Shown here: piece after piece, positions 1 to 4,316 of the stretch
Position numbering within the stretch: the stretch's first letter is position 1
Layout: the number at the start of each line of letters is the position of its first letter
Virus record (IMG/VR): IMGVR_UViG_2671181094_000004
Source of the DNA: a virus
Lineage: Duplodnaviria > Heunggongvirae > Uroviricota > Caudoviricetes
Strand: one strand, 5' to 3'
Length of the DNA stretch: 4,316 nucleotides
Notes under the pieces: generated by a model
Databases searched by the model: none
Told to the model about the DNA's origin: nothing
Seen by the model: only the letters and a program-made list of their open reading frames with translations
Program-made: the position numbers and the translations under genes

Positions 1-2
1 AC

Positions 3-269
3 TGTTCAGCAGATTATCAGGCGCAACTGAAGCGGCATAATCTGCGTGGAAGTATGAGCGCAAAAGGTTGCTGCTACGATAATGCCTGCGTGGAAAGCTT
101 CTTTCATTCGCTGAAAGTGGAATGTATCCATGGAGAACACTTTATCAGCCGGGAAATAATGCGGGCAACGGTGTTTAATTATATCGAATGTGATTACAAT
201 CGGTGGCGGCGGCACAGTTGGTGTGGCGGCCTCAGTCCGGAACAATTTGAAAACAAGAACCTCGCTTAG
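3..269 (+). CDS. insF: IS3 transposase OrfB (InsF-type DDE transposase), C-terminal fragment; 5' partial, starts before the window
   Basis: The frame is open from position 3 to the TAG at 267-269. The translation [47 protein letters not shown]...[16 protein letters not shown] matches my memory of the IS3 OrfB C-terminus, including the conserved E of the DDE triad in CVESFF. The listed ORF 54-269 is only the part after an internal Met. Confidence 0.85.
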
Positions 270-299
270 GCCTGTGTCCATATTACGTGGGTAGGATCA
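270..299 (+). repeat. IS3 right terminal inverted repeat
   Basis: The terminal ~30 bp end in ...gggtaggatca. The reverse complement TGATCCTACCCACGTAATATGGACACAGGCC has the IS3-family TG...CA terminus. The exact IR length was not measured against the left end, which is not in the window. Confidence 0.7.
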
Positions 300-455
300 C
301 ATACCGTCATGAGCGACATGCTTATATTCCCTTCCTTCCATAAACGATTTTTCCCGGGCCTTTTTTAACGTACCTTTTTTTATTCCTTTCAGCGCAATTA
401 ACTGCTCTTCGGATACCCATTTGCCGGGAGAGACAATCATGATTACTTCGCTCAT
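297..455 (-). CDS. Excisionase-like small DNA-binding protein (Xis family candidate), C-terminally truncated by the IS3 insertion
   Basis: ATG at 455-453 to TGA at 299-297 gives 52 codons by manual translation: MSEVIMIVSPGKWVSEEQLIALKGIKKGTLKKAREKSFMEGREYKHVAHDGM. The W...TLKKARE...GREY pattern resembles lambdoid Xis proteins (lambda Xis has ...RRWVRE...DGREYLF). The stop codon is the last 3 nt of IS3, so the native C-terminus is missing. The RBS is weak. The ORF is absent from the supplied track, presumably below its length cutoff. Confidence 0.45.
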   Translation of the reverse strand: MSEVIMIVSPGKWVSEEQLIALKGIKKGTLKKAREKSFMEGREYKHVAHDGM

Positions 456-527
456 CGATTTCTTTATCTCTTACATCAGACGAGCGCCGGTTGCAGAATA
501 CCAGTCACAACCGGCGACAGTTGAACA

Positions 528-2999
528 TTAAGAATCAGCCTGACTCGGGATCAGTTTTTGCCAGATAACTGAAACGTATTTTGCCTGGTAACGGGCGTCA
601 TCAAGTGCATTATGGCGCTCACCTTCGAATGGAATAGCCGTTCTGGCATCGAAGTCTATGGCTTTCCCCAGCTCAACGATTGTGCGTACATCGCGATCGT
701 TGTAGTAACGCCACGGGCAGGGGATCCCCTGCCGTTCGTATGAACGGCGCAAAATCGTGTTGTCGAAGTTGGCTCCATTTCCCCAAACCTGAACAAAAAA
801 TTCACCGGAGTTTTCGTCGATAAATTCCCGCAATTGTAACAGTGCATCATCTAACGGGATTTCATCGGTCATAATGGCAGATTGCGCTTCGCGTGATTGC
901 TTAAGCCACCATTTAATGGTGTTCCGATCAATGACTCCGCCAGCAGTTTCCAGATCGATAGTCTTACTAAATTCCGGTCCCATATCTCCGGTTTGCGGAT
1001 CGAAAAATATTGCACCTATTGAGATGATCGGGGCATCAGGATTTTTTCCCATGGTTTCAAGGTCGATCATTAGATGGTCACACGTCCTGCTGGTGGATGT
1101 GATTTCGTGATGACCGTTCACCTTAATTGAGTGATCTGCCGTCTCGCCAGTTTCATTATCGCTATTGTGATGCTGATTGCCGCTAGTGTTCTCCTTGTGT
1201 GGATGTTCAGCGCCTTCCATTTCCTCCGGATCATCTTCCTGAACTTCAACCTGATATTCTTCATCGAATGTTTCTTGATATGTTGCGTCGCCCATCACCG
1301 CGCCACAATCAGGGCAGTTGCCGCCGCCGGTCTGACCGCAGGCGGTGCAGACTTTTTCCACTTCCTGTTGCGCCACTGGTTCAGGCTGTTTCGTTTCTGG
1401 CTCGTTTTGTAACGCATTTGTGCTGTTTTGTTCCGCTTTTTGGTAGTTCCGTTCCGATTCATGCTGGTTCTGGTTCACAGAATCGCGGGTCTGGATCCCC
1501 TTAACCCATTTCGGATCATTCGGGTCACTAATCCCTTCAACAAATTCACCACGTGATGCAGCAAGCAACTTATCGGCGTCAGGCTGGCTGATATTGGCTG
1601 CCTGCATAATTTTGTTTACTTCGTCAGCGGTAACTTTTATCGGCTCTGGTTGTTCTGAATCTTCAGCGGTATCTACATTTTGCGGTAAGCCCGTGTATGT
1701 GCCATTTTTTCGGGCAAAATATTCTTCTTTTGTGATTTCAGTGGCGCCAGCAGCCAGTGCCTTATCCAGACCAGAAAGTTTGTTTGCGCGACCGTATTTT
1801 TCTCCGTCCTTATCTGCGAAGAGGAAATAGAACGGCCCCTCACGCTCTACAGATGGTTCAGCTTCCGGCGCGGTTTCATTTTTTGGGATATCAGATACCT
1901 CAGTTTCCACTGCATCAGTTTGTGTTTCTGATGACTGGAGAACATCAACAGTGCCCAGGTCTGTTTCTTCATTCTCAAACACGCCCTTTGTCGTCAGGTA
2001 TTCGCAGATATATTTGTTCAGTGCTATGGGATCTTTGTGAATGTCGATCGGACGCTCACGGACAAGGCCAAAAATAGTCTGGCGGTCGTAGCGAAGGGCA
2101 TCAGGCTGTTTGCGCATTGATGCCGAGATACGCTTCCAGTCTTCGCGGTCGTTGTCGATAACTTCTTTTTTTGCCCAGCGATGGATGCTGCCGTCAATGT
2201 TTCCGGCATCCACATCACCAGGCCAGAGAGCGTAGGCCAGTTCGTCATCCAGTGTTTTCCATGTCTGCTTGTATTCGCGATGAATGGCAGCAATGACCGG
2301 GCTGATTTTTCCTGTTGAATTTTCAGTGTACTGTTGATTGGCTCTGGCGCGGGCGAGATCAACAACAGACGTGTATTTTCCGGTTTCCTTGCGTTCACCT
2401 TCGCGACGTTTTTTCCAGATGCGCATCTCTGCCTGAATTTCGGGCCATTTAGCACCAGGAATACATTTATGCTTAACCCACCCAATGGCGTGCAACTTAA
2501 GCTCCGGATACATGGCGTTAACTTCTGGCATTTTCATCAACGCTTCAACGATATGTCCGTCGAATGTTGCCATGTCTTCCTGCAACAATTCCTGTGCGCT
2601 AATAACCATATCAACGGTGATGTTTTCACATGTGTCGAACTTAACCATGACAGCGTTCTGTACTTCAGGGGCCAGCTTGTCAAAAGTGACGTTCATCGGA
2701 TCGGATTCAGTCTCAACCGGGACAAAAGAAGCAGACTCCTCATCCCAGCGGTTTTCCTGCATATATTCAGCATCCCATGAATCGAGGGCAGGGCGGGGTA
2801 TGCCAGGTTTATCCTCGCAGACAATAAATTTATAAGCGCAGTCCTGAGCAGCCGGATAATGTTCCAGGAACTGCCAGTGAAATTTTGCTCGAGCACGGCG
2901 TTCGTCGCCAGCTTCAATGGCTGTGGCTACAGCCACAGCGCCTTCTTCCCTTGTTGCCAGTTCGTCAGGAATAGCGGCGCAAATAAAGACTTTACTCAT
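528..2999 (-). CDS. Large multidomain prophage protein (823 aa): N-terminal domain of unknown function, central CxxC-x7-CxxC zinc ribbon within acidic low-complexity linkers, C-terminal DnaQ-like DEDDh 3'-5' exonuclease domain
   Basis: This is an uninterrupted 824-codon ORF with GAGG (3013-3010) 10 nt upstream of the ATG at 2999. The C-terminal residues ~641-815 (nt 555-1079) carry Exo I LMIDLETMG (D646, E648), Exo II VQVWGNGANFD (D746) and Exo III HNALDDARYQAKYV (H796, D800/D801), with DnaQ-like spacing. The zinc ribbon CTACGQTGGGNCPDCG is at residues 551-565 (nt 1305-1349). Linkers rich in E, D, Q, P and T span residues ~350-390, 440-550 and 570-635. Gene order places it in the early-left exonuclease slot. 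Confidence 0.85.
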   Translation of the reverse strand: MSKVFICAAIPDELATREEGAVAVATAIEAGDERRARAKFHWQFLEHYPAAQDCAYKFIVCEDKPGIPRPALDSWDAEYMQENRWDEESASFVPVETESDPMNVTFDKLAPEVQNAVMVKFDTCENITVDMVISAQELLQEDMATFDGHIVEALMKMPEVNAMYPELKLHAIGWVKHKCIPGAKWPEIQAEMRIWKKRREGERKETGKYTSVVDLARARANQQYTENSTGKISPVIAAIHREYKQTWKTLDDELAYALWPGDVDAGNIDGSIHRWAKKEVIDNDREDWKRISASMRKQPDALRYDRQTIFGLVRERPIDIHKDPIALNKYICEYLTTKGVFENEETDLGTVDVLQSSETQTDAVETEVSDIPKNETAPEAEPSVEREGPFYFLFADKDGEKYGRANKLSGLDKALAAGATEITKEEYFARKNGTYTGLPQNVDTAEDSEQPEPIKVTADEVNKIMQAANISQPDADKLLAASRGEFVEGISDPNDPKWVKGIQTRDSVNQNQHESERNYQKAEQNSTNALQNEPETKQPEPVAQQEVEKVCTACGQTGGGNCPDCGAVMGDATYQETFDEEYQVEVQEDDPEEMEGAEHPHKENTSGNQHHNSDNETGETADHSIKVNGHHEITSTSRTCDHLMIDLETMGKNPDAPIISIGAIFFDPQTGDMGPEFSKTIDLETAGGVIDRNTIKWWLKQSREAQSAIMTDEIPLDDALLQLREFIDENSGEFFVQVWGNGANFDNTILRRSYERQGIPCPWRYYNDRDVRTIVELGKAIDFDARTAIPFEGERHNALDDARYQAKYVSVIWQKLIPSQADS

Positions 3000-3092
3000 T
3001 TTGTTTTAACCTCATGACAGATTTAAGGATGAACAAATCCCTGCCATTGCTGGCATATAAGAATGAAACCGGATATTTATTACGGAACTGTT

Positions 3093-3284
3093 TTAAAGAC
3101 CTGCCGGGATTTCGATATTATCCTGGTGAATAACTTTATCGACCGGGTAACAGTTACCGGGAATTTTCTGTTCGGTTGCTGCAGTCATACACTCCTGCAT
3201 TGTCCTGTGAACACTGACTGCAATATCAACTGGCTCTCCGGAAACAAGAAAAACTGTCAGAACAAGCGCAAATGCTGAATTCAT
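3093..3284 (-). CDS. Small protein (63 aa) with an N-terminal hydrophobic segment (possible signal peptide or membrane anchor) and two Cys in the C-terminal half; function unknown
   Basis: The ATG at 3284-3282 overlaps the upstream gene's TGA (3283-3281) as ATGA, and AAGGA lies ~10 nt upstream. The protein is MNSAFALVLTVFLVSGEPVDIAVSVHRTMQECMTAATEQKIPGNCYPVDKVIHQDNIEIPAGL. The longer track ORF (81 aa from 3338) has no better start context. Confidence 0.6.
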   Translation of the reverse strand: MNSAFALVLTVFLVSGEPVDIAVSVHRTMQECMTAATEQKIPGNCYPVDKVIHQDNIEIPAGL

Positions 3285-3469
3285 TGTGCACATCCTTTTG
3301 GCATCAGACGTAAACGAGCCAGCATTGAAACAATGCATATTTTATTTAATAGCTCCCGTTCTTGTTTTCTCTTGTTAATGGCATCTTCAGTAAATACAGG
3401 GTTACTGATAGTGACACCAATTTCAAAACAACCTTCAGACGTATTAACGTTTGGTAATAACGTTTTCAT
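3281..3469 (-). CDS. Small early-region protein (62 aa), RacC-like by position immediately upstream of the exonuclease gene; identity not verified
   Basis: The ATG at 3469-3467 has a strong SD (GAGGA) 8 nt upstream. The protein is MKTLLPNVNTSEGCFEIGVTISNPVFTEDAINKRKQERELLNKICIVSMLARLRLMPKGCAQ. The 97-aa track ORF starts at a GTG (3574) with no SD, so the ATG start is preferred. Its stop overlaps the next gene's start (ATGA), indicating translational coupling. Confidence 0.65.
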   Translation of the reverse strand: MKTLLPNVNTSEGCFEIGVTISNPVFTEDAINKRKQERELLNKICIVSMLARLRLMPKGCAQ

Positions 3470-3830
3470 TATCGCGTCCTCAACAATGAATTTTGTGATG
3501 CAGTGCCTGGTGCCTCCAGGTGACGTTAACCAGTTAACAATTAACGCCGGATACAGAGAATCCACCCATAACACTGTTTTTGGTTTTAACTGTTCCGCGT
3601 GCGCTTAGCCGCATTCACCGCATCACAAAATTCACTTTAAAAACGGCGGCAGAGCAGTCACGGAGTAAAACTGATACCGCCAAACGTCACCAGAAAATTG
3701 ATAACAGAGGGCGTTGCAGCGGGGTTGTCACTTAAGCGTATGGTCAACCTGACAACTCGGTGTCCTCAACGGGGAAGGAATAACCCCGCCATACTTACCG
3801 CCGCGCCATTTCGCGGGTTGCCACAACCGG

Positions 3831-3892
3831 AAGCGCACGGTCGAATTAAATTTAACGACACCGTACAGTGAGACGAACTTCGCCGTGCGCTT
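3831..3892. repeat. Perfect 10-bp inverted repeat (aagcgcacgg / ccgtgcgctt) flanking a 42-bp spacer that contains a 10-bp AT palindrome (ttaaatttaa, 3846-3855)
   Basis: Read directly: 3831-3840 aagcgcacgg and its exact reverse complement at 3883-3892. It lies in the ORF-free divergent intergenic region, ~80 bp upstream of the plus-strand ATG at 3972. Confidence 0.6.
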
Positions 3893-3971
3893 TCGTGTTG
3901 TGTGCCTGCTTTTAACCACGTCAGGCGAGGTGGTATCCTTCTTATTCCGAATAACCAAGAAGGAAATCTAT

Positions 3972-4040
3972 ATGACTAAAGAAGAATTTGTCTCTTATAT
4001 TTTTGATAAAACGGTTGAGGTAATGACTCCAACTTATTGA
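3972..4040 (+). pseudogene. 5' remnant of a divergently transcribed gene, disrupted by IS1 after codon 16; the reading frame runs into IS1 and stops at 4038-4040
   Basis: AGGA at 3961-3964 lies 7 nt upstream of the ATG at 3972. The native codons give MTKEEFVSYIFDKTVE; IS1 sequence begins at 4019, and the remaining codons (VMTPTY, then stop) are IS1-derived. The identity of the original gene cannot be determined from 16 residues. Confidence 0.55.
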
Positions 4041-4316
4041 TAGTGTTTTATGTTCAGATAATGCCCGATGACTTTGTCATGCAGCTCCACCGATTTTGAG
4101 AACGACAGCGACTTCCGTCCCAGCCGTGCCAGGTGCTGCCTCAGATTCAGGTTATGCCGCTCAATTCGCTGCGTATATCGCTTGCTGATTACGTGCAGCT
4201 TTCCCTTCAGGCGGGATTCATACAGCGGCCAGCCATCCGTCATCCATATCACCACGTCAAAGGCCGACAGCAGGCTCAGAAGACGCTCCAGTGTGGCCAG
4301 AGTGCGTTCACCGAAG
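4019..4316 (-). mobile_element. IS1 insertion sequence (partial; continues beyond the window end), InsB-proximal end facing the prophage
   Basis: ggtaatgactccaacttattgatagtg from 4019 matches the IS1 terminal inverted repeat (GGTAATGACTCCAACTTATTGAT). The downstream sequence encodes the InsB C-terminus on the minus strand. The 9 bp adjacent outside are aacggttga (4010-4018); the target-site duplication cannot be verified. Confidence 0.9.
4034..4315 (-). CDS. insB: IS1 transposase InsB, C-terminal fragment; 5' partial, starts beyond the window end
   Basis: The frame is open from the window end to the TAA at 4036-4034. The translation ...[75 protein letters not shown] matches my memory of the IS1 InsB C-terminus. 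Residues encoded by 4256-4315 differ at a few positions from the IS1 copy I remember, so this is an IS1 variant. Confidence 0.85.

Follow-up and report, generated by a model that had tools for sequence, protein, structure and literature searches.

A probable IS1-mediated deletion truncates a small antisense gene and removes the dicBF promoter and repressor in a decaying Qin-like prophage

We analysed a stretch of 4,316 bp (the window), which corresponds to the entire draft contig CXYS01000097.1 of assembly GCA_001269125.1. Our results point, with a probability of roughly 0.8, to the left arm of a decaying Qin-like prophage in which the IS1 sequence at the right border is the scar of an IS1-mediated deletion that truncated a 66-aa antisense gene and removed both the dicBp promoter and the repressor. 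Both ends of the window are collapsed repeats, IS3 on the left and IS1 on the right, and the IS boundaries double as assembly breakpoints. The window stops inside IS1, and the sequence beyond this element was read from L017, a near-identical assembly and not the source strain. The features assigned to the window are the following:

1..299, plus strand: right end of IS3, with the 3' part of transposase orfB (rve_2/rve_3 Pfam matches) and the terminal sequence ...GGGTAGGATCA ending at 299
297..455, minus strand: excisionase gene (xis) truncated by IS3 (PF06806 DUF1233, E 1.8e-19)
528..2999, minus strand: full-length YdfE-type protein of 823 aa with a C-terminal 3'-5' exonuclease domain (PF16473 Rv2179c-like, E 4e-67; YdfE_N/YdfE_C; WP_053290155.1)
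3093..3284, minus strand: ydfD, 63 aa, DUF1482, annotated lysis protein (annotation/domain match)
3281..3469, minus strand: dicB, 62 aa, cell-division inhibitor (PF05358 DicB; annotated as dicB in L001 and L002)
3644..3695, minus strand: DicF sRNA (Rfam RF00039, 72.5 bits for a gathering score of 48, E 3e-15, model positions 1-52 of 52)
3696..3913, minus strand: structured 5' leader of the dicF precursor (conservation, inverted repeats and folding)
3930..3938, plus strand: candidate extended -10 element TGgTATCCT, putative promoter of the 66-aa gene (motif shared with diverged homologues)
3960..3964, plus strand: Shine-Dalgarno (SD) sequence AAGGA (AGGA at 3961-3964) with a 7-nt spacer to the ATG (from the sequence)
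3972..4018, plus strand: first 47 nt (15 2/3 codons) of the 66-aa gene, WP_000159335.1 / phrog_34441, identical to the start of the intact CDS in L001, L002, L003, L029 and L032
3972..4040, plus strand: chimeric 22-codon ORF, MTKEEFVSYIFDKTVE plus VMTPTY, with its TGA inside the IS1 inverted repeat (from the sequence)
4019..4316, minus strand: right end of IS1, comprising the IRR GGTAATGACTCCAACTTATTGAT at 4019-4041 and the 3' part of insB (PF03400 DDE_Tnp_IS1; 100% identity to IS1 copies)

The initial annotation of this DNA had described a plus-strand ORF at 3972 preceded by AGGA at 7-nt spacing, and direct reading of the sequence gave exactly these coordinates. From the ATG at 3972-3974 the frame reads MTKEEFVSYIFDKTVE and then VMTPTY before reaching the TGA at 4038-4040. 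The intact gene runs ...ACGGTTGA followed by AATGTATGCC (L001), whereas the window instead continues with GGTAATGACTCCAACTTATTGATAG, which is the IS1 right inverted repeat. This comparison places the breakpoint unambiguously at 4018/4019, the inverted repeat (GGTAATGACTCC...) starting at 4019, in agreement with the meeting point and stop codon first proposed. The native sequence left amounts to 47 of 201 nt and the 3' 50 codons are severed; the third base of codon 16 (4017-4019) is supplied by IS1, and the Glu residue is kept by chance. The gene is indeed cut after about 16 codons, but it was not decapitated as had been said, since its head is what remains in the window and its 3' 50 codons are what was lost. 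Over positions 4019-4316 the window is 100% identical to IS1 copies, and the element shares its direction of transcription with dicF and dicB. Exact-pattern scans of genome_contigs and viral_contigs returned no match to the window junction, and looking up a 51-aa GTG-started chimeric ORF found no record.

Evidence on the nature of this junction came from L017, a 432-kb contig of GCA_041330615.1 that matches window 1-4316 with one mismatch (99.98%) and spans both ISs. Its IS1 is a complete 768-bp element at 5655-6422, with InsA and InsB Pfam matches and with exact IRR and IRL. The element is preceded by ...ACAGGATTTA and followed by TCAACCGTTT, the IRR side being the window junction. A simple IS1 insertion is expected to carry a direct 9-bp target-site duplication (TSD; range 8-11), and none flanks this copy. 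The duplication that the initial annotation had suggested looking for at the other IS1 end does not appear, this end being flanked in L017 by ...ACAGGATTTA and not by AACGGTTGA, and adjoining the late region. Since the TSD is missing and the IRL side is joined to the late region, we read IS1 in L017 as a deletion junction. The same locus provides two controls: a second IS1 in int (L017 11822-12589) has a perfect 9-bp TSD, CTGAAGTCG, and the IS3 in xis (L017 10142-11399) has a 3-bp TSD, ATG. With the junction IS1, three IS elements lie in 7 kb of a single arm of this prophage.

The IRL flank corresponds to the region upstream of a ybgA-like gene (2-thiouracil desulfurase family), ...TAAATCCTGT, and beyond this gene lie AraC-type, holin, lysozyme and Rz genes, oriented as a co-linear deletion would leave them. 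In the BL21(DE3) gene order the two breakpoints are about 6.4 kb apart, and the deletion would have taken the lipocalin gene, Q, DUF968, rem, hokD, DUF977, O, ydaT, dicC (dicC/cro), the DicA-like repressor, the ydfA-like gene, the 121-aa partner gene and the 3' 50 codons of the 66-aa gene, together with dicBp, which is located upstream of the ydfA-like gene. Two routes could have produced this loss: an IS1 close to the ybgA-like gene in the late region may have transposed intramolecularly (adjacent deletion), or two direct IS1 copies may have recombined, possibly with a simple insertion carrying a TSD as a prior step. The exact IRL-side junction of L017 was absent from the complete E. coli genomes, where all 15 places that seemed to cover it were multi-piece, and no precursor arrangement was found in any complete E. 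coli genome searched.

At the opposite border, similarity to intact prophages begins at window 300. The truncated xis encodes 52 aa when read from the first ATG, or 47 aa in the called gene, for 83 aa in the intact product; an intact xis of 252 bp is present in L001, and the IS3-truncated product recurs on many contig ends. The simple IS3 insertion into xis was a separate step that preceded the deletion, because L018 carries the IS3-cut xis together with an intact 66-aa gene and immunity region. The earlier view that the prophage segment is bounded by two independent IS insertions thus holds for IS3, which is an independent, simple insertion with the TSD ATG, but not for IS1, which in L017 is a deletion junction.

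Next, we compared the gene neighbourhood with that of intact relatives, in which the order in the direction of the operon is a DicA-like HTH gene, a DUF1391 (ydfA-like) gene, the 121-aa gene, the 66-aa gene on the opposite strand, dicF and dicB. In these relatives the block forms the left arm of a Qin-like lambdoid prophage next to rspB, and the Qin-type order (ydfA-like ... dicF, dicB, ydfD, ydfE, xis and int beside rspB) was confirmed in L001, L002, L003 and L032. The 66-aa gene is embedded in the dicBF early-left operon in antisense orientation and converges with the 121-aa gene, the two sharing 32 nt; the window lacks the promoter-proximal part of this operon. A polycistronic RNA initiated at dicBp, in front of ydfA, is known to yield both DicF and dicB; no promoter was found within the dicBF operon, and dicBp is repressed by DicA (PMC10448788). 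In K-12, RNase III cuts a 190-nt DicF species from the dicBp transcript (PMC10448788).

Two elements of the initial description do not survive this comparison. The 66-aa gene is not divergently transcribed, as it is antisense within an operon transcribed from a distant promoter on the right, dicBp, in front of ydfA. Similarly, the supposed repeat-rich intergenic region (3575-3971) contains no divergent control region, and this DNA is now re-read as encoding, on the minus strand, the DicF sRNA and its structured precursor. The dicF leader (query 1-214) is about 90% identical in thousands of E. coli genomes, K-12-type Qin included, holds inverted repeats I2-I5 and folds better than shuffled sequences (z = -2.4). 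Additionally, we observed a mosaic boundary at about 3913-3940: thousands of genomes match either 3700-3913 (about 90%, K-12 type) or 3700-3940 (99-100%, with no annotated gene), and only about 400 continue past it into the 66-aa and 121-aa module, which replaces ydfB-ydfC.

On the other side of DicF, a sub-threshold Rfam match to STnc100 was detected at 3437-3646 on the minus strand (34.5 bits vs a gathering score of 47, E 5.6e-05), spanning the dicF terminator, the dicB 5' UTR and the dicB start. The two arms of a 19-nt inverted repeat (95% complementary), at 3487-3505 and 3616-3634, are separated by 110 nt; one immediately follows DicF and the other immediately precedes the dicB start codon. 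The repeat is a candidate for a long-range RNA duplex, and possibly for the RNase III site at the DicF 3' end.

Other IS1 elements have entered this same stretch of DNA. E. coli JBEHAAB-19-0176 (L029 4058-4825) has a canonical IS1 with the 9-bp TSD CGAATAACC, equivalent to window 3947-3955; it separates the conserved TGGTATCCT motif (the putative -10) from the SD, has the window's orientation and leaves the 66-aa gene otherwise intact. A set of S. sonnei contigs opens with an IS1 right end, directly after which comes the remainder of the gene, AAACGGTTGAAATG... (the 3' 50 codons). At this junction (L012, L013 and L015, positions 1-60) the IS1 orientation is opposite to that in the window, the site corresponds approximately to window 4009, and the flank overlaps the window flank by 10 bp. 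The S. sonnei-type junction occurs only in S. sonnei-labelled assemblies and in three metagenome contigs, an exact-pattern scan of genome_contigs gave no match to it, and neither this junction nor that of the window is present in any complete E. coli genome searched. The simplest reading of these nearby events is that they are independent insertions into an AT-rich target.

Separately, in several database ORFs (P0052, P0053, P0009, P0010 and P0014-P0016) foreign sequence is joined to the 66-aa gene or to the DNA upstream of it; examples are a transposase-like C-terminus entering about 65 nt before the ATG and foreign tails that begin after residues 37 and 46. These fusions suggest further independent IS insertions or rearrangements in other strains. 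We also considered an IS hot spot selected to silence dicBF, prompted by three IS1 events in about 70 bp and the read-throughs P0052, P0009 and P0015, and toned this idea down; as 390 of the 398 genomes carrying the gene keep it essentially whole, we claim no selection for its disruption.

The alternative that best withstands these data is that the window's IS1 is a simple insertion with an 8-9 bp TSD in a divergent regulator, immunity or exclusion gene, with the prophage continuing past the element. Both the junction and the gene are real, the canonical IS1 with TSD CGAATAACC in JBEHAAB-19-0176 and the IS1 end preceding AAACGGTTGAAATG in S. sonnei lie close by, and an antisense gene in an early-left operon would recall sieB of Rac. 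L017, however, has the same junction without a TSD and joined to the late region, which contradicts a simple insertion for the L017 lineage. Moreover, the gene is antisense within the operon and does not face it across a control region, and its hydrophilic product has no family similarity, membrane segment or HTH that would fit a regulator or exclusion protein. We consider this alternative unlikely.

A second alternative would be the transposition of a composite element made of two inverted IS1 copies with their IRR ends outward, generating a 10-bp duplication AAACGGTTGA, so that the window and the S. sonnei contigs would be the two sides of one event. The window flank ...AAACGGTTGA before the IRR and the flank AAACGGTTGAAATG after the IRR in S. 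sonnei do share exactly 10 bp, and each is joined to an IRR end with insB 3' sequence. Nevertheless, the junctions come from differently labelled taxa (the proteins of the window and L017 are labelled E. coli, and the other junction is from S. sonnei or metagenomes), neither is found in complete E. coli genomes, the co-linear deletion explains the L017 arrangement, and two independent insertions in opposite orientation offset by 1 bp, each with a 9-bp TSD (AAACGGTTG being expected in S. sonnei), fit equally well; the composite is very improbable.

We also asked what the intact gene is. The search with the N-terminus and upstream region, proposed initially as a way of recognising a fortuitous ORF, found an intact homologue of 66 aa, deposited in RefSeq as WP_000159335.1 "hypothetical protein". 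The window agrees fully with the intact gene in the 16 N-terminal residues, the SD and the 270 nt upstream, and PGAP places the 66-aa CDS at exactly the window's ATG in every intact prophage inspected, which include those of E. coli CP53, O111, EC6563, JBEHAAB-19-0176 and BL21(DE3). The family N-terminus is MT[KN]EEFV[ST]YIFDKTVE and the window encodes those residues only, a gene fragment whose product could not work as a member of the family. The intact protein matches phrog_34441 (unknown function) end to end (E 1.5e-50). Among 5426 complete E. coli genomes, 398 contain the promoter-plus-gene segment, E. coli B, BL21 and C included, and in 390 of them the match covers at least 80% of the 251-bp promoter-plus-gene query, which we took as an intact gene.

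Homologues of 65-66 aa exist in Cedecea (73% identity) and in other assemblies (54-57%). Nei-Gojobori estimates of dN/dS, for which dS was near-saturated, were 0.11 against the Cedecea homologue and 0.28 against L028. The start codon and the SD are conserved, with SD-like GGGAGG in L026 and AAGGA in L028. These ratios correspond to purifying selection, and by this sequence criterion the 66-aa ORF is therefore a real gene. The downstream end of a TGnTAyCCT motif lies 32-33 nt before the ATG in three diverged homologues whose flanks otherwise differ. A consensus promoter scan did not call this element; on account of its conservation upstream of diverged homologues, the 66-aa gene probably has its own promoter. 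That the ORF is instead a chance product of the junction or of antisense sequence might be argued from its short length, its lack of a Pfam family, its position antisense to the operon transcript and a tiny family of 13 matches among 1.84 billion representatives, but we find it scarcely credible for a 66-codon frame that is open in 390 E. coli genomes, keeps frame and length in Cedecea and other enterobacterial prophages at 54-73% identity, shows dN/dS of 0.11-0.28 with saturated synonymous sites and a conserved SD and start codon, moves to different prophage contexts, and yields a confident helical hairpin in AlphaFold2 (pLDDT 79). These data make WP_000159335.1 a real, selected and narrowly distributed small protein, whose gene lies antisense within dicBF in E. 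coli B, BL21, C and O111 strains.

The protein itself resembles no characterised family. It has no match in Pfam, NCBIfam or PADLOC (0 PADLOC matches), a PDB sequence search gave chance-level matches only (E >= 0.46), and Foldseek of the model against BFVD and PDB returned no match at E <= 0.001. The HMMER profile search over the 1.84 billion representatives returned the family itself, with its fusions or truncations, as ten matches at E <= 1e-10; the other three were long proteins with weak similarity in several stretches (E 2e-06 to 2e-04). The AlphaFold2 model is a two-helix hairpin (H3-22 and H31-54). The protein is hydrophilic and acidic (GRAVY -0.68, pI 5.3), with no membrane segment (maximum 15-residue hydropathy 0.6) and no helix-turn-helix by Pfam, by NCBIfam or in the two-helix model. 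As modelled, the 66-aa protein is a soluble two-helix orphan. A literature search found no mention of the accession WP_000159335.1, and no expression data for the protein were found. The regulator, immunity or exclusion role initially offered for the lost gene finds no counterpart in these results, as there is no similarity to regulator, immunity, exclusion or defence families, no HTH and no membrane segment; what would speak for exclusion is the analogy of position with sieB.

The 66-aa gene always overlaps tail-to-tail with the conserved C-terminal domain of a 121-129-aa partner, the DNA being dual-coding over 32-56 nt; the arrangement is seen at L001 5442-5473, L028 5839-5894 (where the partner has 129 aa) and L026 3568-3897. 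In Cedecea the module lies between cro and a cII-like gene, and the partner is reduced to its C-terminal domain (...LPVIREAI.R.GL.G.YDH......RTM..SLG), in an ORF that extends antisense across the small gene and does not have the usual stop. As judged from these contexts, the 66-aa gene and the partner domain behave as a small mobile module, or moron. A more speculative and doubtful extension would unite the protein and the partner C-terminal domain in a hitherto unnoticed two-gene module of the prophage. Transcribed in the lysogen from a promoter of its own, antisense to dicBF, this module would modulate DicF/DicB processing or expression (through the protein, or by transcriptional or antisense interference) or give the lysogen a phenotype, such as exclusion. 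If this were true, the loss through IS1 would be more than neutral decay.

Returning to the deletion, its consequences can be proposed from the arrangement of the sequence. The small gene is inactivated, and the intact dicF and dicB would be cut off from the only promoter known to drive them. A promoter scan of the minus strand between IS1 and dicF found no consensus-like promoter, and the main consequence is likely to be that dicF and dicB lose their promoter and expression. IS1 is classically polar; transcription reading through from the co-oriented element, or a weak hybrid promoter formed at its end, may nonetheless drive dicF and dicB. Loss of the repressor would be tolerable because dicBp is removed together with it. 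This joint loss would disconnect two host-toxic cell-division inhibitors and represent a viable route to prophage domestication. Beyond annotation the case has little import, turning a mysterious truncated gene into documented IS1-mediated prophage decay.

Among known systems, the small gene can be compared first with sieB of Rac and lambda-type prophages, which has its own promoter inside the early-left region and, in Rac, is encoded on the strand opposite kilR and ydaF. Its product is a membrane protein roughly three times the size of the 66-aa protein. The two genes are alike in position, in antisense orientation within the early-left operon and in probable expression independent of the operon promoter; their products, however, share no sequence or fold similarity, the 66-aa protein being soluble and acidic, and the analogy is one of position only. 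The correspondence with WP_000159335.1 / phrog_34441 is exact in the N-terminal residues, SD and upstream DNA, with only 47 of 201 nt left in the window.

The Qin dicBF operon (ydfABC-dicF-dicB-ydfDE, with dicBp and DicA) shares with the window and its relatives the order of DicF, DicB, YdfD, YdfE and DUF1391 (YdfA), the rspB-side attachment site and a dicF leader about 90% identical to the K-12 type. Where K-12 Qin has the ydfB-ydfC module, the 121-aa gene and the convergent 66-aa gene are found here. Unlike in K-12 Qin, where ydfE is truncated by an IS2, ydfE is full length here (823 aa).

Finally, the window IS1 belongs to the IS1 family by its IRR GGTAATGACTCCAACTTATTGAT (4019-4041) and insB (PF03400), this copy forming a rearrangement junction. 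It resembles the IS1 adjacent deletions and the IS decay of cryptic lambdoid prophages in having an IS1 end fused to prophage DNA without a TSD and a co-linear loss between two prophage sites, and the L017 prophage has, as in such decay, a further IS3 in xis and an IS1 in int. Nothing sets it apart as unusual: the breakpoint falls in a small antisense gene, dicBp and the repressor are lost together, and the case is one of ordinary IS-mediated decay of a cryptic Qin-like prophage, a kind of event already known.
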